The position numbers were made by a program, and so were the translations under genes. A DNA stretch of 61,182 bases, counting the filler, from Coriobacteriales bacterium (lineage in GTDB: Bacteria; Actinomycetota; Coriobacteriia; Coriobacteriales; UBA8131), in the NCBI GenBank assembly GCA_031263105.1. It is 7 parts of 7 records of this genome, joined end to end, with 100 filler letters (N's around TTAATTAATTAA, not from the genome) between each part and the next. Parts side by side here need not be neighbours in the genome. Positions count along the whole stretch, not along the records: positions 28,213 to 34,318 come from JAISGJ010000072.1; 6 more parts are not named here. One strand, given 5' to 3'. Positions 11,128-34,318 of this stretch are shown here, in pieces (within the stretch, counting starts at the first letter, position 1; each line of letters begins with the position of its first letter). The notes under the pieces are model-generated. The model did no database searches. It was not told where the DNA came from and was given only the letters and a program-made list of their open reading frames with translations.

Positions 11128-13527
11128 TCACTCCGTCGCTGTCGTTGCGTCGAGCGCATCAAGGCTCGCCTCGACACCCGCCGGCGCATCCGTTCTGCTC
11201 ACCCGGCAAAGCTGTGACTTGTAGGAATTGCAGTACCCCGACTTTCCCGGTCGCATGGGGAGCAGCTGGTTGACATTGACGTCCATTACTCCAAAGAGCG
11301 TGCCGTCGCCCTGTTCGCGCTCCGGGAACCACCAGCCGTGGTCGGCCGAGACCGTGTCCTCGCGGATGCGCGGCGAGAGCTCGGCGCGCATCTTGCAGGA
11401 TCCGAAGCTGTTCTCAAGAAGCATCCAGTCGCCTTGGGCGATGCCGTGTCGAGCGGCTGTCCTGGGGTGCAGCATCGCCTGCGGCCAAGGCGCGAAGCGG
11501 CGAAGCGTGGGCGACTGTCGGTGCTCGGAGTGAAAGTATCCCCAGCGCCTTGCGCCGGTGGTCAGCACCAGCGGGTACTGCTCGGCCAGCTCGGGCGTGG
11601 AAAGCGGGCTCTCCAGCGGCTCTTCGTAATACGAGAGCGCCTCGAGGCCAAAGTGCTCCAACGCCATGCAGTGGAACTCGTAGCGCCCGGTCTGCGTGTT
11701 GAAGCCCGGGTGACCGTCAGGGCGCAGAAGGCCCTTCTCGTGCTTGTGATACTCGAACTCGGGATAGGCCCAGGTGCGCTGTCTCATCTCCTTGTAGCTA
11801 AAGGGCGCGTCGCGCAGGATCCAGTCGTAGAACTGCTCCTCGCTCTCCCAAGGGCTGGCAGCCCTGCCGACTGCCTCGCCCGAACGCGCCGTCCAGAAGT
11901 GGCGCGCGAACTCAAAGATGATCTGCTGGTCGCTCTTGCACTCGCCGGCCGGCTCGGTTGCCTGGGCAATGGCGCCCAGATAGTAGGGATGGTGCCCCGT
12001 GAGGCCCGGACGCTCGGTAAAGCAGGCTGCGGGCAGCACGACATCGGCGAGCGCCATGGCCGTAGGAGTCATAAAGAGATCCACCACCACATTGAAGTCG
12101 GTGCCCCGCAAGGCTGAAAGCAGGCGTTGCGGCTCGGCGCCCATACAGGCAAGCGTGTTGTTGGTCTGAAGCCAGACTCCCTTGACGGGATAGTCGCCCT
12201 CAAGCGGCTGGCTCCCCTCGCCGAGGCCCACTACGGCCCTGCCGGTCTCCAAGGCCTTGAGCATCTCATCGTTGCTGGGCATCCCCAAGGCCCCCACAGC
12301 GGGATAAGGGCCGGTGAGCCGCTTGTCGAGCCCTGGGTTTCCGGGCACGTCCAGTGCCTGTATCGCCTTTTGCGAGGCCAGCCAGGGCTCTTCCACACCG
12401 AAGCATGGGCGCGCGGCCACCATCGAGCCGGGCCTCTCGAAATTGCCCGTCAGGGCCAGCAGGTCGAACATGGTCATGCCCGTATAGAAGCCCTCGGTGG
12501 TATGGTCCACGGCCACGCCCCATTGCAGGCAGGCGCTTGAGGCTGCGGCTATGGTGCGGGCGGTCTCCTCGATCAGGTCGGCGTCGATGCCGCAGACATC
12601 GGCGGCGTATGCGGGCGTGTAACGCGCTACGCTTGCGGCGAACTCCTCAAAGCCATAGGTCCAGCGGTCGATGAAGTCCCAGTCGTAGAGCTGTTCTCGC
12701 ACGATCACATTGCAGAGGGCAAGCGCCAGAGAGGCATCGGTGCCCGGACGTACCTGCAGCCAATGCTTGGCACGGCCGGCCAGCCAGGTGAGCTTGGGAT
12801 CCACACAGACGATCTCGCTGCCGCGCTTCATGCATTCCACGACCCAATGGCCCAGCGTGCCGTCAGAATTGGCGACCACGGGGTTGTTGCCCCAGATGAC
12901 GATGACGCCGGGCGGCCGCCAGCGCGGATCCTCGTAGCGCTCGGGCATGAATTGAGAGTAGTCGCAGACAAAGGCGTCTCCCGCCTTGAAGAACATCATC
13001 ATCAGGCGCGGCGCATAGCAGCCTTGGCCGGAAAGGAAGCCCATGCCGTAGTTGGGCGTGCCGACAAGGCGGGCGAGCATGGGGCCATAGCCGTTGATGT
13101 CGCGTCCCGTGCCCTGGGTCACGTTGATGGCCTGGGTGCCGTACCTGTCGATGATGGCGCCGAACTCCGTGGTGATGCGCTCGAAGGCCTCGTCCCAACT
13201 GCAGCGCTCAAAGCTGTCCTGCCCGCGCTCGCTGCGTTTGCGCTGCAGGGGATACAATAGGCGCCTGGGATGCTCGATCATCTCCTTGGCGGCCAGGCAG
13301 CGCAGGCACAGGCGTCCCTGGTTGTAGGGGTTCTCGGGGTCACCCTCTATCTTTTGCAGTCTGCCGTCCTTGGTGTAGAGGAGCACGCCGCAGCTGTCGT
13401 GGCAACCGGGGCCTGTGCGGGCGTTGCTGCGAATGACGGTGCAGCCGTCCTCTTCCCATGTCCATCTGCGACCGACGGGGTCGTCTTGGGTGACGGTGGC
13501 GCTGCTGATGGTCTCATCGGCGATCAT
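11128..13527 (-). CDS. DMSO-reductase-family molybdopterin oxidoreductase, no Tat signal
   Basis: AGGAG RBS; GPGCHDSCG...GRLC Fe-S motif, HPRRLLYP, RPGTD, DLFMTPTA..AD.VLP, YPLVLTTG, FHSEHRQ, HGWWFPE. Confidence 0.92.
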   Translation of the reverse strand: MIADETISSATVTQDDPVGRRWTWEEDGCTVIRSNARTGPGCHDSCGVLLYTKDGRLQKIEGDPENPYNQGRLCLRCLAAKEMIEHPRRLLYPLQRKRSERGQDSFERCSWDEAFERITTEFGAIIDRYGTQAINVTQGTGRDINGYGPMLARLVGTPNYGMGFLSGQGCYAPRLMMMFFKAGDAFVCDYSQFMPERYEDPRWRPPGVIVIWGNNPVVANSDGTLGHWVVECMKRGSEIVCVDPKLTWLAGRAKHWLQVRPGTDASLALALCNVIVREQLYDWDFIDRWTYGFEEFAASVARYTPAYAADVCGIDADLIEETARTIAAASSACLQWGVAVDHTTEGFYTGMTMFDLLALTGNFERPGSMVAARPCFGVEEPWLASQKAIQALDVPGNPGLDKRLTGPYPAVGALGMPSNDEMLKALETGRAVVGLGEGSQPLEGDYPVKGVWLQTNNTLACMGAEPQRLLSALRGTDFNVVVDLFMTPTAMALADVVLPAACFTERPGLTGHHPYYLGAIAQATEPAGECKSDQQIIFEFARHFWTARSGEAVGRAASPWESEEQFYDWILRDAPFSYKEMRQRTWAYPEFEYHKHEKGLLRPDGHPGFNTQTGRYEFHCMALEHFGLEALSYYEEPLESPLSTPELAEQYPLVLTTGARRWGYFHSEHRQSPTLRRFAPWPQAMLHPRTAARHGIAQGDWMLLENSFGSCKMRAELSPRIREDTVSADHGWWFPEREQGDGTLFGVMDVNVNQLLPMRPGKSGYCNSYKSQLCRVSRTDAPAGVEASLDALDATTATE

Positions 13528-18179: not shown

Positions 18180-18512
18180 GTTACTGACACCATGTGTTCA
18201 CACCCCACTGTCATTCCGAGTTCCACCGAGGAATCTTTGGACACGCAGTGTCCAACGGTAGGCCAGGGGAGCCTTCGACCTGCGGTCGGCTGCTCCGCGT
18301 TCCGTGGGCCTGTCGGTTCCATGGGCTCACCCGCTCAGGGGCTCACCCGCTGCTCCGCAGCTTCGCCCGGAAACAGCACACTGTGCTGTTTCCCAGTCCG
18401 CCGGACCGTCGCGCCGTCCTCGCTGAAAACGCGGTGCGTTTTCCGGGCGCTCGGACCCGAAGATCCCTCGGCTGCGGGGCCTTGCCCCTCCGCTCGGGAT
18501 GACAGTGGGGGG
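18180..18512. mobile_element. GTTAC-TIR palindromic element, copy 5 (reaches contig end)
   Basis: gttactgacac...caccccactgtcattccgag ... ctcgggatgacagtgggg; shares internal modules with copy 2 in the opposite orientation. Confidence 0.9.
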
Positions 18513-27762: not shown

Positions 27763-28112
27763 ATGGCATCGAAATCGATTGCGATACTGAACACCAGCGG
27801 GGAGAAGGTCGGCACCGCCCGGCTCGATGAGAGCGTCTTCTCCATCGCCCCTAATATCCACGTGCTCCACGAGGTCTGCCGCGCACAGATGGCGGCGCGT
27901 CGCGCGGGCACCCATGACACCAAGACCCGCGGACAGGTTTCCGGCGGCGGTCGCAAGCCCTTCCGTCAGAAGGGTACGGGCCGTGCCCGCCAGGGTACCA
28001 TCCGTGCGCCGCACTACCGGGGCGGCGGCGCGGTATTTGGGCCGCATCCCCGCGACTACAGCTTCAAGGTCAACGGCAAGGAGGTCAAGCTCGCCCTGCG
28101 TTCCGCGCTTTC
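27763..28112 (+). CDS. rplD: 50S ribosomal protein L4 (3' partial)
   Basis: [25 protein letters not shown]. Confidence 0.97.
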
Positions 28113-28212
28113 NNNNNNNNNNNNNNNNNNNNNNNNNNNNNNNNNNNNNNNNNNNNTTAATTAATTAANNNNNNNNNNNNNNNNNNNNNNNNNNNNNNNN
28201 NNNNNNNNNNNN
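28113..28212. other. Artificial contig linker
   Basis: N-run, TTAATTAATTAA, N-run. Confidence 0.98.
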
Positions 28213-28461
28213 CCCCACTGTCATCCCGGCCCCCACTGTCATCCCGAGCCTGCCGAGGGATCCTCGGCCGCGCCAGCGGCCGACCGCAGGCCGAAGGGCC
28301 CCCTGGCCTGCCGTTGGACACTGCGTGTCCAAAGATTCCTCGGCGGAGCTCGGAATGACAGTGGGGGCCGGGATGACAGTGGGGGTGTGACGTGTGACAT
28401 GGCGGTGGGGGCCGGGGTGGCGGTGGGGGCTCGGGACGGCGGTGGGGGTGTGACGTGTAAC
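28213..28461. mobile_element. GTTAC-TIR palindromic element, copy 8 (left end cut by contig edge)
   Basis: ccccactgtcatcccggc-ccccactgtcatcccgagc ... gctcggaatgacagtgggg-gccgggatgacagtgggg ... gtgtgacgtgtaac. Confidence 0.88.
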
Positions 28462-28549
28462 CCGGGATGGAAACTTTCCACAGCCATCCAAACGCTCCCT
28501 GAGGCAGACCGTCTGCCACACTGAACGCAACGGGCTTTCTGCCCGCAAC

Positions 28550-28584
28550 CAATCAGGCGCAGCCAAAACGGCTGCGCCTGATTG
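28550..28584. terminator. Perfect 15-bp stem hairpin downstream of the transposase (possible terminator)
   Basis: caatcaggcgcagcc-aaaac-ggctgcgcctgattg; no clear U-tract. Confidence 0.45.
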
Positions 28585-28669
28585 CTGCTTGCAGCATTCG
28601 GATGGGTTTGATGGCGCACGGGGCCAAGCCTTCGTCAAGCCAGTTTCAAACCCATCCGAAAGCATGTCG

Positions 28670-30067
28670 TCAAGCGCTATCTGGCTGTATGCCCGCGCCC
28701 CGCCCGTGCGCCTCGGCCTCTTGCCGGATGCCCTGGAAGGGCATATCGCCAGTGCCGCTTCCAGTGGCGCCTATCGGCAGGTGGCCCATGCCGTCGGCAT
28801 CGGGCCAGACCATGGAAAAGATGTCCAAGGGCCCGGTCGCCCTCTCGCCGCATGCGCGGCACGGCATCTCTGTGGGCGACAGGCCGCAGGGCGACCTCCC
28901 GGGCGTGGAGTCGGCCTTGCAGTTGGCGTCGGCCACGTCGGCCGCAGCCAGGTTGTCCATGCCGGCTCGGCCTTTTGGCAGAAGCCGCCTAAGCCCTGCA
29001 TGGCTCTTCTCGCAGCGCCCCTTCTGCCGGGACTGCCGCGGGCCGCAGTAAAAGGCCCTGCAACGCTTGGGCGCCCCCTCGCAGACGGAGCGCTCCAGCG
29101 CTGCGGGGCCTTCGGGCTCTGGGCCGCTGTCGGTCAAAGGCACCGGGAACAGCACCGAGGGCAGGCGGCGCGACGTGCGCCCCGTCAAATCGAGCGCGCG
29201 CGCCGCCTCGGCAGTTGCCTTCTCCTCCAAGGGCACATGGAGCCGGAGGCGCGCCGGGCGGGCACAAGGCGCCGGCAGGCGTCCGGTGTCGGCCTTTTTG
29301 CCCGTTGCCGCGTCCGTCTCCACGCACCCGCCCTGCCCGCCTTGCGCAGGGCCCGGGAGTGCCGCATGGCCCCCGGAGCGGCCATGGCGGGCGATGCGCC
29401 TGTCCTTGTGCTGCCTGCGCGGCCTGGGGCCGACCTTGCGCTTCGGCTCGATGTCGGCCATGCCGCCGTAGCCGCGCCCCGCCCGGCGGCACGGCGCGGA
29501 CGGCGATACCTTGGGCTGCTCGGCGTACAGGGCGGCTGTCTCGCAAGGCGAGGGCCTGCGGGACAGCGCCGGGCGGATGACGCCCAAGGCGCGATCGGAC
29601 TCCTCGGCCGTCCTGTTGGCGCCGCGCCCGGCGCCCGTGCGCCCGCCACGGCTGGCCTTGTCGGCCACGGCGGCCACATGCCTGTGCCTGCCCGGCCTGT
29701 CGCAGCCGCACTTGAGCTTCCGGCGGCCGTTGCAGGCCCATGGCGCCGATGCCGTCTTGGCGCATCCCGCTGTCGCCAGATGGCATGCGCAGGCCTCCTT
29801 GCAAGGCATCCTGTCGCGCCTCGCGCAGACGGCCCCCGGCGTGGGGCGCTCCCGGCATATCGGCGTCTTTTCGCAGTGCCCCTGCTCGCGGCAAGGAGCG
29901 TTTGCGGCCCTTGTCTTGACAGGCATCCTGTCGGCCCTGACCTCGTGGGCCGCCACAGACGGGCCTTTGCCGACGGGCTGGGCGGCTCTGGCAAACGACA
30001 GCCCCTTGCCCGGGCTCTCCTCGACGATGCGCCTGTCGTCAAGCGCGATCCTCCCGTGCTCTTTCAT
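28670..30067 (-). pseudogene. Degenerate IS30-family transposase with an intact reading frame
   Basis: GGAGG RBS; HTH-like start (DDRRIVEE...GLSFA); Cys-rich region (APWACNG); eroded DDE motifs VETDAATG, LTDSGPEP, FYCGPRQSRQKGRCEKSH. Confidence 0.75.
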
Positions 30068-30274
30068 GGCGCCCTCCGTCTCTTCGGCAGACGGCGCGCA
30101 TGAGGGCTTAGGGCCAAGTGGGACCACAGACAAGGAAAGCGGCATTCGGACCCAGCCCGGCGCATTTGGTTGGATTTGAAAGTCTTGGCTGAGCGTTTGG
30201 GTGACTGCGGAAAGTTTCCAACTGTAACGCTCCAGGGGCCCCTGCCCCTCGTGAGGGCGGCTAAAAAATAATGC

Positions 30275-30303
30275 GTGACAAACTTCCGGTGGCGTGCTAT
30301 AGT
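30275..30303 (+). promoter_or_regulatory. Sigma70-type promoter for feoA
   Basis: GTGACA-17 nt-TATAGT with TG extension. Confidence 0.6.
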
Positions 30304-30370
30304 AGAAGCTGCAAAAGGAAGTGTTTTCTAACTTTGTTTCGATAGAACGGCAGAACGTGAGGTTGACGAC

Positions 30371-30583
30371 ATGACGCTCAACAAGGTCGATGTAGGCAGC
30401 GAGTACCGGCTTGTGGCATGCAATGCGCCACAGGCGACGCGCAGCAAACTCGAGACGATGGGCCTTGTCCCCGGCGAGCGCATCAATGTTTTGCAGAACA
30501 CCAATTCCGGCTTCATAATCGAGGTGAAGCGCTCCCGCTTGGCCATTGCCCACGACATCGCCAACAACCTCATCGTCTCCTGA
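30371..30583 (+). CDS. feoA: FeoA-family protein
   Basis: 70 aa; KLETMGLVPGE.I.V, IIEVKRSRLAI...IA. Confidence 0.85.
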   Translation: MTLNKVDVGSEYRLVACNAPQATRSKLETMGLVPGERINVLQNTNSGFIIEVKRSRLAIAHDIANNLIVS

Positions 30584-30757
30584 CCTGCCCCGACGCCTCG
30601 GAGCCGACCTTCTCTCCAAGTCTCCCATAGACGGGCAGGGTTCGTCCGTTGCTCATATCGTCGCACTTCCCCCTCATCTTCCGGGAGGTTTTCTGTTAGC
30701 ATGGGAACCCTCGGTACAGACGAGTGAATGCAAGAGAGGACGGCGAGGGGGCCGGTC

Positions 30758-31156
30758 ATGAAGGAGCATCCATTGGACAAGAAACTCTCCCCTGCAAACG
30801 AGGACTACCTTGAGGCCATCTTCGAGTTGGGCGGGACAGACGGTGCCGTGCGCTCCGTCGACCTCGCGACGAAGCTCGAGGTGTCGAAGGCGAGCGTCAA
30901 CAACGCGGTAAACAACCTCAAGCAGGCGGGGCTGGTCGAACAGCCTTATTACGGCGACATCACACTGACGAGCAGCGGGGCCGAGTATGCCGCCGGCATC
31001 CTTGAAAGGCATCATGTGCTCTATCATTTCCTGCTCGACGTCCTAGGGGTGGAGCCGACGGTTGCCGTCGAGGAGGCCTGTAAGATGGAGCACGCCATAA
31101 GCGACGACACGCTCAAGCGCCTGACCGCCCACCTCAAGGAGACGGTGCCGCACTAG
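30758..31156 (+). CDS. DtxR/MntR-family metal-dependent regulator
   Basis: EDYLEAI, LEVSKASV, ERHHVL..FL..VLGV, EEACKMEHAIS. Confidence 0.92.
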   Translation: MKEHPLDKKLSPANEDYLEAIFELGGTDGAVRSVDLATKLEVSKASVNNAVNNLKQAGLVEQPYYGDITLTSSGAEYAAGILERHHVLYHFLLDVLGVEPTVAVEEACKMEHAISDDTLKRLTAHLKETVPH

Positions 31157-31489
31157 GTGCCGCACGAGGGCTGCGTCGTCGCACGGGCGGGAAGCGGGCG
31201 GGAACGGCGTCGTATGGAGGATGTCGCAGGGGGATTGTGCGAGGAAAGGCGAGAGGCCCGGTGGAGGGACCGGGCCTCTCTTCAAGGAGGGGATGCGACG
31301 CATATGCATGCGCCGTGCTGTGCAAACCGAGTCTTGAGCACAGACGCGATTCGGAAGGGGAACACCGGAACCGCGCAAGAAGAAGTATGCCACAGACCCG
31401 GGGCGCTGCGGACAATGGATTGACAACGGTCGCCTCCCTGTCAGGCCCTTGAAACATTCGTCAAGGTCCTGTAAGAATCGCAGGAACGG

Positions 31490-32359
31490 ATGGATATGCG
31501 GATGGATGGGAACAGCCAGATGCCTGCAGGAAAGCGGGTCCAAGGGGCGGAAAAAGAGAGGGGGCCGGAGGGTCGCCCCGATGCCGCCTCGGGCGGCGTC
31601 CTTGCCCTGACGGTCGCCTATAACGGCGCGGGCTTCCACGGCTTCGCCCGTCAGCATGGGCTGCCGACCGTGCAAGGCGAGCTGGAGCTCGCCCTGCGCA
31701 CCGTCTTCGGCTGCCCGGTCGAGACCGTCGGTGCCGGACGCACCGATGCGGGCGTCCATGCACTGGGACAGGTGGTCTCCTTCGAGCTGCCGAAGCGGGG
31801 CCCCGCCCGCCGCACGCTCGACCGGCTCCGCAGCTCGCTCAACGCCCTGACCCCCGAGGGAATGGTCATACGCAGCATCGAGGAGAAGCCTGCGGACTTC
31901 TCGGCACGCTTCTCGGCACGGGAGCGCGAGTACCGTTACCGCTACGTGTTCAGCGAGGTTGAGCCGCTGTTCCTCCGTCCTTACACGTGGTGGGTGCCTT
32001 CGTCGCAACCCGTCGACGTGCAGGCGATGAAGCAGGCCGCGCCCCTTCTGCTCGGCACGCATGACTTCGCGTCGTTCTGCGTGTCCGCATCCGCTGTCGA
32101 GCGCAACACCGTTCGCGAGCTGCTCAGCCTCACGTTCTTCGGGACCGACCATCTGGGCGAGGCCTGCCTCGTGCTGCAAGTGCGCGGCACGGCCTTCCTG
32201 CACTCCATGATCCGCGTCATCGCGGGCAGCATGCTCGAGATCGGCCTTGGCAGGCGCGAGCCGCAGTGGCTCTCGGAGGTGCTTGCGGCAAAGGACCGCA
32301 CCGCTGCTGGGCAGACCGCTCCCGCACAGGGGCTGACCTTCTGGCGGGTCAGGTACTGA
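31490..32359 (+). CDS. truA: tRNA pseudouridine(38-40) synthase (start uncertain)
   Basis: AYNG..FHGF..Q, GAGRTDAGVHA.GQV, GTHDF.SF, FLHSMIR, TAPAQGL. Confidence 0.95.
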   Translation: MDMRMDGNSQMPAGKRVQGAEKERGPEGRPDAASGGVLALTVAYNGAGFHGFARQHGLPTVQGELELALRTVFGCPVETVGAGRTDAGVHALGQVVSFELPKRGPARRTLDRLRSSLNALTPEGMVIRSIEEKPADFSARFSAREREYRYRYVFSEVEPLFLRPYTWWVPSSQPVDVQAMKQAAPLLLGTHDFASFCVSASAVERNTVRELLSLTFFGTDHLGEACLVLQVRGTAFLHSMIRVIAGSMLEIGLGRREPQWLSEVLAAKDRTAAGQTAPAQGLTFWRVRY

Positions 32360-33042
32360 TGTCGGTCCCTGCGTCCGCGTCCGGGCAGGGGCGGCAAGGA
32401 CGGCGCGTCCCCTCCCTTGTCCTTCTGGTCGTCCTTGTGGCACTCTGGCTCATCGCCGCATCTTTCAGGCTTCTGCTGCTTCCGTCGGCCACCTCCCTCC
32501 TCGCCGAGCATACCGTCAACGACCGGCTCTCCGCACTTGACCACGCCCAGCTCGTCGAGGTCGCCGAGAGGGGGCGGGCCTTCGTGATGGGGGCTGAGGG
32601 TGTCACGCTTCCAGCAGGCGACGACGGGCGTACCGCCTTCCCTTCGGACGTGGTGGGCCATATGGAGGACGTGCGCGACGTCCTGTGCGCCGTCCGCCTC
32701 GCAGCCGTGGCGATCATGGTCCTGCTGCTGGTCGTGGCGGTGTACGTGTGGCGCAGGGCGGGCCGCAAGGCGCTGGGCCTCGGCCTGCTTGTGGGCGCCG
32801 TCGCGGCGGTCGCGGCCACCTTGCTGTTTGTGGCATTGGGCGCACTCAACTTCAATGCGCTGTTCGCCGCCATGCATCAGCTGTTCTTTGCGGAGGGGAC
32901 CTGGGTCTTCGCCGAGGACTCGCTGCTTATCTGCGCCTACCCCTTGGGCTTCTGGATAGGCATGGGCGCCACCTGGGCCCTCCTGCTGCTGCTCGCAAGC
33001 GCCCTCGTCGCGCTCCTCGGCATCGTGCTCCGCAGGAGGTGA
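32359..33042 (+). CDS. DUF1461/TIGR01906-like integral membrane protein
   Basis: TGATG overlap with truA; HMEDVR, F..LF..MHQLFF..GTW.F..DS.LI..YP..FW. Confidence 0.8.
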   Translation: MSVPASASGQGRQGRRVPSLVLLVVLVALWLIAASFRLLLLPSATSLLAEHTVNDRLSALDHAQLVEVAERGRAFVMGAEGVTLPAGDDGRTAFPSDVVGHMEDVRDVLCAVRLAAVAIMVLLLVVAVYVWRRAGRKALGLGLLVGAVAAVAATLLFVALGALNFNALFAAMHQLFFAEGTWVFAEDSLLICAYPLGFWIGMGATWALLLLLASALVALLGIVLRRR

Positions 33043-33043
33043 G

Positions 33044-33116
33044 GGAGAAAGAGGTTGGGGGAGAAGTTCGGGCGTTGCCTCCCCAGCTTGTCTCCCAACT
33101 CCCCGACTTTCTCTCC
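33044..33116. terminator. Imperfect long hairpin between convergent genes
   Basis: ggagaaag...gttggg ... cccaac...ctttctc complementary arms. Confidence 0.35.
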
Positions 33117-33133
33117 GGTGACGTGCTGTCTCC

Positions 33134-33928
33134 CTAGCCTTCGATCTTCTCCCCGATGAAGCGCTCCGCGTTGTGCCAGCAGATCTGCTCGCGCTCGGCG
33201 TCGCTCAGGTCGTTTCCCATAAAGCGCTCGACCTCCTCGGCGGGGCTCCACATGGGGTAGTCCGAGCCGAAGAGGATGCGGTCCGCCCCGTAGAGGCGGA
33301 TGAGTTCCGTCGTGCGGCGCGGCCCTAGGTAGACCGATGCGCTGGAGAGGTCCATGAAGCAGTTCTCGTCCTCCAGGTACTCGACGGCCAGGTCGTAGAG
33401 GGACCAGCCGCCGAAATGTGCCGCATTGAGCACGAGGCGGGGAAAGCTGTGCAGTATCTCCTTGATGCGGCGCGGGTGCGAGTTGTCCCAGCGGTAGTCC
33501 CCGCAGTGCAGGATGAGGGGCAGGCGGCCTTCGATGATGCCGTACAGGCGCATGAGGCGGGGGTCGTCCGCATCGACGCCCTGTGAGTCGGGGTGAAGCT
33601 TGAAGCCCTTGAGGCCCAGGGCGACGCAGCGCTCCACCTCGGCCTCGACGTCCTCGAAGTCCTGGTGCATCGTCGCAAACCCTATGAGCGAGGGATGCAG
33701 GCGTGCCTGTTCGGCGATAAAGTCGTTGATGCTCTGTACGTTGCCTGCGCGCAACGCGACGGAGTGGACGAGGGAGGCGGTGATGCCCGCCTGCTTCTGA
33801 GAGGCGAGGAGGTTTGTGACCGAGCCCTCCCCCCGCATCTCGAGGCCGTAGAACCTCCCGACGCTCTCGACGGCCTTGGCGGCGATCTTGTCGGGATAGA
33901 TATGGCAGTGTGCGTCGACGATCCTCAC
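33134..33928 (-). CDS. Amidohydrolase family protein
   Basis: AAGGAGG + GTG; DAHCH, KGFKLHP, HCGD, AHFGG, LFGSDYP. Confidence 0.9.
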   Translation of the reverse strand: MRIVDAHCHIYPDKIAAKAVESVGRFYGLEMRGEGSVTNLLASQKQAGITASLVHSVALRAGNVQSINDFIAEQARLHPSLIGFATMHQDFEDVEAEVERCVALGLKGFKLHPDSQGVDADDPRLMRLYGIIEGRLPLILHCGDYRWDNSHPRRIKEILHSFPRLVLNAAHFGGWSLYDLAVEYLEDENCFMDLSSASVYLGPRRTTELIRLYGADRILFGSDYPMWSPAEEVERFMGNDLSDAEREQICWHNAERFIGEKIEG

Positions 33929-34051
33929 AGGGTCCTCCTTAAAGGGTCTTTGCCACAGGGCGCTTGGGGCGTGCGGCGCAGGCACGGGCGCTGCGCCGTG
34001 CGGAACCCTCACGCGGAAACCGTCACGCAGAAACCCTCATGCGCACGAAAA

Positions 34052-34215
34052 GTTACTGTTCACACCCTCACTGTCATTCCGAGCCCCGCCGAGGAATCTT
34101 TGGACACGCAGTGTCCAACGGCAGGCCAGGGGACCCTTCGGCCCGCAGTCGACCGCTTGCGCGGTCGAAGATCCCTCGACAGGCTCGGGATGACAGTGAG
34201 GGTGTGAACAGTAAC
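34052..34215. mobile_element. GTTAC-TIR palindromic element, copy 9 (164 bp)
   Basis: 34-bp TIR, 33/34 match (gttactgttcacaccctcactgtcatyccgagcc); flanks cacgaaaa / cacgaaac. Confidence 0.93.
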
Positions 34216-34298
34216 CACGAAACGCCATGCGGAAAATGTGCGTTGCAAAAGCAGGTGGAAAAAGCAGAGCCAATATGGTACCATACCCCCTTGTGCGT

Positions 34299-34318
34299 GC
34301 GGGTGTGGCGGAACTGGC
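34299..34318 (+). tRNA. 5' fragment of a tRNA, probably tRNA-Leu
   Basis: GCGGGTGTGGCGGAACTGGC at the contig end, after an extended -10 (TGGTACCAT, 34276-34284); anticodon not visible. Confidence 0.7.

Follow-up and report, generated by a model that had tools for sequence, protein, structure and literature searches.

Hypermutation of mobile elements by a single class of base change is known from eukaryotes, where repeat-induced point mutation (RIP), APOBEC and ADAR bring it about, and from engineered mutators. RIP acts in fungi before meiosis, needs duplicated copies and turns C:G to T:A, creating stop codons on the way; ADAR takes double-stranded RNA as its substrate and leaves A>G/U>C hypermutation in RNA viruses and retroelements; and in diversity-generating retroelements (DGRs), a short variable repeat is copied from a template repeat in such a way that adenines of one strand can become any other base. 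The natural DNA deaminases of the AID/APOBEC/DddA kind that are known to us act on cytosine. Here we describe an insertion sequence (IS) of the IS30 family in a 61,182-nt stretch of DNA (the window, in whose coordinates all positions are given) from a Coriobacteriales bacterium (GCA_031263105.1). With a probability of roughly two in three, this dead, single-copy element underwent an episode of near-pure A:T>G:C hypermutation that is distinct from the mutational background of its genome. In the open-access papers and bioRxiv preprints that we searched, we found neither a report of an A:T>G:C hypermutated bacterial IS nor a natural DNA adenine deaminase.

The source genome is metagenome-assembled (2.9 Mb, 250 contigs, 64.5% GC; completeness 86%, contamination 6.5%), and the window joins seven of its contigs through linkers of the form N44-TTAATTAATTAA-N44. 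The element lies on the contig that spans 28213-34318 (C233), and the sequencing run that matches it best is labelled as a termite gut metagenome.

An IS30-family element with a degenerate transposase

The element occupies 28468-30220 (1753 bp) and is present once in the assembly. As the preliminary description of this DNA had it, 30-nt inverted repeats (IRs) enclose a Pro/Ala/Gly/Arg-rich frame, which runs on the minus strand from 30067 to 28670 and translates without a stop into 465 residues (P0001), 228 of them Ala, Arg, Gly or Pro. The transposase-upstream repeat (IRL, 30191-30220) and the transposase-downstream one (IRR, 28468-28497) both lie outside the frame; they are complementary at 27 of 30 positions, with A/G or T/C at each of the three mismatches, and share their terminal 12 nt, TGGAAACTTTCC, and the element ends are homologous to those of the elements at two relatives, L020 and L002. 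While the latter two have CC on both sides, a 2-bp flanking duplication, the flanks here (...CCGGGA before and ACTGTA... after the IS) contain no direct repeat, and thus no target-site duplication of 2-3 bp is seen.

A search of 5.8 billion proteins yielded four protein relatives (P0002-P0005) at 46-64% identity, and a profile search across 401 genomes of the order detected the family in 126; from this search and from scans of genome and metagenome contigs we assembled the DNA of 25 relatives. The nearest relative, P0003, is a 313-aa protein fragment. A second protein search seeded with P0003 gave nothing nearer than 70% identity, over part of the query, and for the DNA of a near parent the metagenome and genome contig scans gave more distant relatives and the viral contig scan none. 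P0001 itself is in the protein database as a cluster of three member sequences from a single contig.

On the NCBIfam model NF033563 (transpos_IS30), P0001 attains 21.6 bits (E=1.5e-4), short of the 80-bit cut-off, whereas the full-length relatives P0002, P0005 and L020 reach 110.9-115.1 bits. A Pfam scan of P0001 returned no match at E<=1, and hence no HTH_38 domain (PF13936), which all four protein relatives carry at 41.7-47.2 bits. With P0001 below the cut-off of the model and its relatives above it, we regard it as a degenerate descendant of the family and not as a working member. The IS30 motifs that the preliminary description had named are indeed those of the relatives, which read CEMDTVxGKK, LTDNGxEF, (F/Y)YCDP, CEK(N/A)H and STLYRW in our alignment (A1), and every one of them is altered in the window copy, to VETDAATGKK, LTDSGPEP, FYCGP, CEKSH and SAPCRR.

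A further trait of this IS30 subfamily, whose members measure 440-456 aa, is a conserved Cys-rich block between the helix-turn-helix (HTH) and the catalytic core, located in columns 59-122 of P0001 and likewise found in P0002-P0005. Its pattern is C-x5-C-x5-C-x9-C-x7-C-x3-C-x2-H...C-x9-C-x9-C, and it is probably a zinc-binding module, for which the Pfam scans of P0001 and the four relatives gave no matching model.

A near-pure A:T>G:C substitution spectrum

At least 80% of the 25 relatives share the same base at 360 nucleotide sites, and there the window copy carries 90 changes: 23 of 71 A have become G, 35 of 84 T have become C, and the rest are G/C>A/T transitions (16) and transversions (16). 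The first two classes thus make up 58 of the 90, while each of nine control relatives, counted in like manner, shows 1-9 such changes. Compared with P0003, P0001 has 114 amino-acid differences, 104 of which are accounted for by A>G/T>C alone in the direction from P0003 to P0001 and six in the reverse direction; in six control pairs among the relatives, 15-25% of the differences are explicable in this way, whichever direction is chosen. P0001 is therefore essentially P0003 plus A:T>G:C transitions, and the earlier statement that its deviations are nearly all A>G or T>C is borne out by both counts.

The density of these changes was estimated at codon positions 1 and 2, with P0003 taken as the parent and the changes polarised at the protein level. 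There, 107 of 314 A/T sites (34%) are converted, next to six G/C>A/T transitions at 312 G/C sites and three transversions, all of them A>C, so that the spectrum, at 107 W>S against 6 S>W transitions (W, A or T; S, G or C), is neither symmetric nor biased towards AT, either of which had been named as grounds for dropping the idea. Both A>G and T>C had been seen on the coding strand, and there they are about equally frequent (55/186 and 52/128, p=0.052). Since divergence from P0003 of any kind other than W>S amounts to at most 9 of 626 sites, the parent must be recent. No window-specific indel occurs over 441 aligned columns, and tblastn returns a single gap-free high-scoring segment pair, in agreement with the absence of stops and frameshifts reported before.

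The long open frame is a by-product of this type of mutation and no evidence of function, because A>G and T>C never make a stop from a sense codon (TAG and TGA arise so only from TAA) and erase the stops that exist. The suppression of new stops that had been proposed is thereby even stronger than claimed, as no sense codon can become TAA, TAG or TGA and old stops are destroyed. The codon CAG for Q445 (28733-28735, minus strand) is probably such an erased stop, TAG>CAG by T>C, with the TAG inferred. It comes straight after the conserved C-terminal ...LPF, at which P0002, P0004 and P0005 terminate (P0060 and P0063 likewise terminate at PF), and the frame of the window copy continues for 21 residues more.

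Along the gene, converted and unconverted sites follow each other in random order, with a conversion rate of 0.21-0.49 in every 120-nt bin, and A>G changes are mixed among T>C changes, with no strand-coordinated runs (59 switches, 50±5 expected). The base 5' to an adenine has no effect on its conversion (A 12/44, C 9/32, G 12/47, T 9/22, p=0.60), while adenines followed by G or C on their 3' side were converted more often (44/91) than those followed by A or T (21/78, p=0.005).

By GC content per segment, the strongly shifted tract covers approximately 28690-30160, with soft boundaries. In the window copy, GC is 0.72 in the open reading frame (ORF), 0.71 in the read-through extension, which has no counterpart in L020, and 0.58 in the 3' untranslated region (UTR), while the 5' UTR has 0.68 over its inner 93 nt and 0.48 over its outer 60 nt at IRL; in L020, the 5' UTR, ORF and 3' UTR stand at 0.47, 0.57 and 0.47. 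Against this distant relative the UTRs have a W>S excess of about 2:1 over a noisy background. The 3' UTR contains two hairpins, a perfect 15-bp one at 28550-28584 (100% complementary) and one with an 18-nt stem at 28594-28663 (17/18), which lies 7 nt past the present stop codon on the minus strand and is a possible transcript end or terminator. Both being intact (15/15 and 17/18) is unlikely at a conversion rate of 34% (P = 0.003-0.016) and not unlikely at 20%: for the first, the probability of zero conversions at 10 A/T sites is 0.016 and 0.11 at the two rates, and for the second, that of at most one at 18 sites is 0.006 and 0.10. Provisionally, then, the tract takes in the ORF and the inner 5' UTR, the 3' UTR is less converted or not at all, and the extreme ends are unconverted.

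The changes are blind to function

An open frame of 465 codons with well-kept IR ends could also belong to a functional, highly divergent or domesticated IS30-like protein held open by selection, and such a protein might be expected to keep its catalytic Asp-Asp-Glu triad, as P0001 does: D252 (29312-29314) and D313 (29129-29131) fall in columns that are invariant in A1, and E353 (29009-29011) lies in CEKSH, aligned to CEK(N/A)H, with the three residues in register. The survival of D, D and E pointed out in the preliminary description is therefore real, but it carries no evidential weight, as three survivors at a probability of about 0.7 each are compatible with chance and five other invariant Asp residues have become Gly. 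We consider this explanation highly improbable for several further reasons. Of the columns invariant in the four relatives, 74 of 224 are changed in the window copy, including 13 L>P, 4 C>R and 7 Y>H/C changes and a W>R. Conversion affected 28 of 69 A/T sites (41%) in columns conserved at 80% or more and 23 of 61 (38%) in columns conserved below 40%, and this equality of conserved and variable columns marks a dead gene and not a divergent functional clade. The HTH_38 domain is undetected although all four relatives have it, the frame's openness is mechanical, as set out above, and among the 5.8 billion proteins no other has P0001's altered residues; that close homologues might share them, as a functional clade would, had been raised as a possible refutation.

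The sequence is unlikely to be an artefact

We regard it as very unlikely that the element is an assembly or sequencing artefact or sits on a contaminant contig, even though the fragmentation and contamination of the assembly, and a window made of contigs with N linkers, invite the suspicion. An independent Logan assembly of run X1, probably the source sample, contains 28369-30700 (2332 nt) within one 2539-nt contig without a single difference, and word depth in this run is about 19, uniform over the element and both flanks. Contig C233 also carries, at 28213-28398, an ordinary copy of the genome's own high-copy miniature inverted-repeat transposable element (MITE), whose identity of 94-98% to copies on many other contigs shows that C233 belongs to this genome. 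Furthermore, we know of no artefact that turns A:T to G:C within 1.5 kb and leaves the flanks at 48-59% GC. In the contigs of runs X1-X3, no sibling of at least 80% likeness covers the element, a result that, coming from contigs and not from reads, is uninformative on absence or on intermediates. One short contig has a 378-nt 'skip' joint, which probably stems from another organism or a repeat.

Drift with the background or a distinct process?

The main competitor of hypermutation is slow neutral decay. A copy dead for a long time would have drifted under a GC-favouring substitution regime, whether by mutation bias, by selection for GC or by biased gene conversion, either here or in a previous host more extreme in GC, with transitions dominating for want of mismatch repair. 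Our benchmark was drawn from the MITE: of its 205 non-overlapping copies, 58 have eight neighbours at no more than 8% divergence, and in these we counted the changes private to one copy. The 107 private substitutions comprise 41 W>S and 39 S>W transitions, 9 W>S and 5 S>W transversions, 9 S<>S and 4 W<>W changes, so that 27 (25%) are transversions, and they are accompanied by 37 indel columns. Two other counts were set aside: a consensus-based MITE spectrum, in which subfamily structure dominates (about 23 differences per copy), and a total of 67 indel events, inflated by alignment noise in the tandem-unit regions and replaced by the 37 columns.

The per-site ratio of W>S to S>W transitions is 2.0 in the MITEs, which predicts an equilibrium close to the actual GC of the genome, against about 18:1 in the element. 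The two spectra differ in W>S transitions relative to everything else (107:9 in the element, 41:66 in the MITEs, Fisher p=1.7e-18), in W>S relative to S>W transitions (107:6 and 41:39, p=1.6e-12) and in W>S transitions relative to W>S transversions (107:3 and 41:9, p=0.0016). The last contrast weighs most against drift, as biased gene conversion, like selection for GC, would promote A>C and T>G to the same degree. Natural close pairs of the family point the same way, with transition:transversion ratios of 21:6, 68:54, 48:81 and 26:29 (113:3 in the element) and, for W>S changes, of 1.5-5:1.

Other decaying copies also look different. We examined 17 copies of relatives, selected because they showed a stop within the match, an unusually long open frame or a weak score; 13 of them are broken by a frame change or an in-frame stop, at W>S loads far below that of the element, and their W>S transition rate per conserved A/T site is 0.00-0.16 against 0.38. 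Within the genome, three other transposase genes have a normal second-position GC of 0.43-0.48, compared with 0.64 in the element's frame, where GC at the three codon positions is 0.68/0.64/0.85 (0.56/0.46/0.69 in L020 and 0.65/0.47/0.85 for the host median). GC-directed neutral substitution of the lineage, one of the two causes first offered, is thus not supported as the cause by the spectrum of the genome's own repeats, with its 41 W>S against 39 S>W transitions.

We still give slow decay something like a one-in-five hearing, because several observations speak for it. The host median GC at third positions (GC3), 0.85, equals that of the frame (0.854), and coding DNA here must therefore be subject to some GC-favouring force; in other genera of the order, relatives attain a GC3 of 0.94-0.99 and a second-position GC of up to 0.59; the order lacks MutS and NucS (see below); variants of the MITE terminal units are mostly A>G/T>C; and degenerate copies in GC-rich relatives lean towards W>S (L056, 21:1; L059, 23:6; L050, 16:7; and also L052). 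Against slow decay stand the element's ratio, its mere 3 transversions in 116 changes, its lack of indels and its recent parent.

The parity of GC3 and the W>S lean of the degenerate copies count against hypermutation itself, as do the following points. P0003, our parent, is a protein fragment and not DNA, so that polarisation does not extend to synonymous sites, to the UTRs and IRs or to the final third of the gene, and the tract boundaries are soft; for amino acids with six codons, parsimony picks the parental codon that favours A>G/T>C, which concerns about 10 events and is controlled by the reverse and control-pair counts only. The MITE repeats may represent unique DNA poorly, above all by overstating indel rates. 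All evidence comes from assembled contigs, not raw reads, and there is one clear case of such hypermutation only, with one weaker candidate in another genome. The 86%-complete genome yielded no candidate adenine deaminase, and the intact IR ends and hairpins, while they fit a transcription-limited tract, equally fit selection on the ends or chance at a 20% rate.

For hypermutation, then, the spectrum of the changes, their density, their randomness along the gene, the absence of selection and the difference from the background are observed directly, while the chemistry is inferred. Of the second cause first offered, hypermutation by a targeted process, the spectrum favours a distinct hypermutation and leaves its targeting conjectural; no enzyme candidate was found. 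The course of events would have begun with a parent element nearly identical to the one that encodes P0003. In one episode, A:T>G:C transitions would have struck about a third of its A:T pairs, on both strands and regardless of codon position and conservation, adding essentially no G:C>A:T changes, transversions or indels. The old stop would have been erased in the process, leaving a wrecked gene that reads on as one long open frame.

Repair genes and possible mechanisms

The preliminary description had called for a check of mutS, nucS and deaminase genes, and the outcome is largely one of absences. Among 61 genomes of the order, MutS (MutS_V) was found in one and endonuclease V in none, while the NucS model (NucS_C, 124 positions) was matched only weakly and in part, over about 40 positions and just above the cut-off in three genomes. 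The lineage, as far as these genomes represent it, is thus without all three known routes for the removal of G·T mismatches and deoxyinosine, and the absence of NucS and MutS-MutL from Coriobacteriia is also stated in the literature (PMC5290159, section 9). The only gene of the genome with a cytidine deaminase fold resembles dCMP deaminase/ComEB, and a search with PF00962 gave a sub-threshold hit only.

Our leading guess, held tentatively and at less than even odds, is that adenines were deaminated in place to hypoxanthine, which is read as G, approximately within the transcribed part of the element, and went unrepaired without endonuclease V, MutS/L and NucS. Hypoxanthine would pair with C and so give exactly the A:T>G:C spectrum; without endonuclease V, its main remover, and without mismatch repair, the lesions would be fixed; and limits resembling a transcription unit would fit an activity on transcribed DNA. 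Against deamination, neither a natural DNA adenine deaminase in the papers searched nor a candidate gene in this genome came to light, and template-strand adenines were, if anything, converted slightly more often. A second guess, which we rate somewhat lower, is repeated copying with G misinserted opposite T, perhaps extrachromosomally, followed by re-insertion. Nucleotide pools rich in dGTP/dCTP or containing dITP, in the absence of proofreading or repair, would bring this about, and the 3'-neighbour effect would be the expected next-nucleotide effect. Such copying needs a separate replicative history and re-entry into the chromosome, and selection for mobilisation in trans would have to have maintained the ends. 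An origin from edited RNA by way of reverse transcription is unlikely, since both changes are present on one molecule and the 5'-G signature of ADAR is absent.

More speculatively, and on balance doubtfully, Coriobacteriia may have, or be exposed to, a process by which a defined stretch of DNA is densely converted from A:T to G:C, through a natural DNA adenine deaminase or a transcription-coupled editor, and which silences mobile elements into long, stop-free, GC-rich ghost frames, as an adenine counterpart of fungal RIP or vertebrate AID. Graded A>G variants at MITE ends and a GC-shifted IS copy in another genome of the order (G227), both described below, could be further footprints of such an activity. 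Were the hypermutation enzymatic, it would reveal a natural activity that deaminates adenine in DNA, an activity so far evolved artificially for base editing; were it replicative, the element would testify to extreme nucleotide pools in a lineage that lacks mismatch repair. In either case, a type of mutation that makes no stops yields long Pro/Ala/Gly/Arg-rich frames that gene callers annotate as proteins, as happened with P0001.

Surroundings of the element and other GC-shifted DNA

The IS30-family copy in G227 (L056, C9:11000-13500, match at 11808-12704 on the minus strand) belongs to a different family of the order. Its GC by codon position is 0.72/0.61/0.98, it is open for 641 aa with one frameshift, and its catalytic EMD motif has become EMG. 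At conserved sites it has 21 W>S and 1 S>W transitions, and W>S alone explains 44-53 of its differences in one direction and 9-17 in the reverse, with no near parent. It looks similar to the element but older, and because the GC3 of its host is near 0.98 it is indistinguishable from drift.

The MITE is extremely abundant, with at least 386 near-full-length blastn hits, 205 after removal of overlaps, and a metagenome word depth of about 17,000. There are 824 occurrences of its terminal 12-mer, ATGACAGTGGGG, across the genome, and contigs often break within the MITE, as at 18499-18512 of the window. The W>S load of its copies, from the consensus count, has a mean of 7.2 and a variance of 7.7 and is thus not over-dispersed. 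Tandem arrays of an 18-nt MITE-end unit are found at 28399-28461 of the window and at C22:8520-8660, C207:7520-7777 and C151:4330-4480, with graded variants ATGACAG > ATGGCAG > ACGGCAG > ACGGCGG / GTGGCGG, mostly on one strand; genome-wide, the A>G/T>C forms of the unit far exceed the transversion forms. The window array consists of three tandem units on the plus strand, 7 nt from the IS end, which read ATGGCGG, GTGGCGG and ACGGCGG where the canonical form is ATGACAG. We considered and rejected an overrun of the tract past the end of the IS as their origin, given the same arrays at C22, C207 and C151 and a different strand asymmetry. The variants may reflect the duplication of old variant units or a local mutational process.

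Genes resembling feoA and DtxR/MntR adjoin the element (30371-31156), and their AT-rich promoter region (30262-30370) visibly has no A:T>G:C change. The gene for ribosomal protein L4 ends at 28112 by reason of the contig end (the linker occupies 28113-28212), not of biology. Other very GC-rich regions of the genome are mostly periodic genes or low-complexity coding sequence. An island at C189:1-18000, with 68-79% GC per kb, abuts DNA of 55-65% GC and carries a phage-type integrase at about 15.0-16.0 kb (within locus L066, 15000-19000); at 16.0-17.9 kb it reaches 79-82% GC, with little codon periodicity and no Pfam domain in any frame.

Comparison with known systems

The element resembles the IS30 family in its terminal inverted repeats of about 30 nt and its one transposase gene, and its relatives pass NF033563 and carry HTH_38. 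It differs in that the window copy falls short of the model (21.6 bits), has no detectable HTH and lacks a flanking duplication, and the subfamily as a whole stands apart by its length of about 440-456 aa and its Cys-rich block.

With RIP it shares the picture of a mobile element riddled on both strands by one transition class, at tens of percent of sites and without indels, and left as a dead copy. The direction is opposite, however, A:T to G:C with stops erased, and the victim is a single copy in a bacterium; nor does the genome as a whole look like one under RIP, as there is one copy only, the three other IS genes have normal composition and the W>S load of the MITE copies is not over-dispersed. 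ADAR would give the same two changes on both strands, at up to a third to a half of the adenines, but A>G and T>C in one DNA molecule would require RNA replication or repeated reverse transcription, and its dislike of a 5' G is not seen (G 12/47, A 12/44, C 9/32).

All mutations of a delta-nucS mutator are reported as 'A:T->G:C or G:C->A:T' (PMC5290159), and like mismatch-repair-deficient mutators generally, the element shows transitions almost only, in a lineage that lacks those systems. A mutator spectrum is genome-wide and includes G:C>A:T, whereas that of the element is local, one-directional and absent from the genome's repeats. In diversity-generating retroelements, which are reported to make adenine-directed changes in bacterial DNA (PMC10907252), one would not expect the 55 A>G, 52 T>C, 3 A>C and 0 A>T changes of the coding strand or a tract of about 1.5 kb; T>C is as frequent as A>G and there is no second copy in the genome, in which a reverse-transcriptase gene was not searched for. 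The DNA deaminases (AID/APOBEC, the bacterial toxin DddA and polymerase-TadA fusions) have in common with the element dense transitions confined to a stretch. Among them, engineered T7 polymerase-TadA mutators reportedly make A:T>G:C changes between promoter and terminator (PMC10250238, PMC10442228), and it is these limits that the soft limits of the element resemble.

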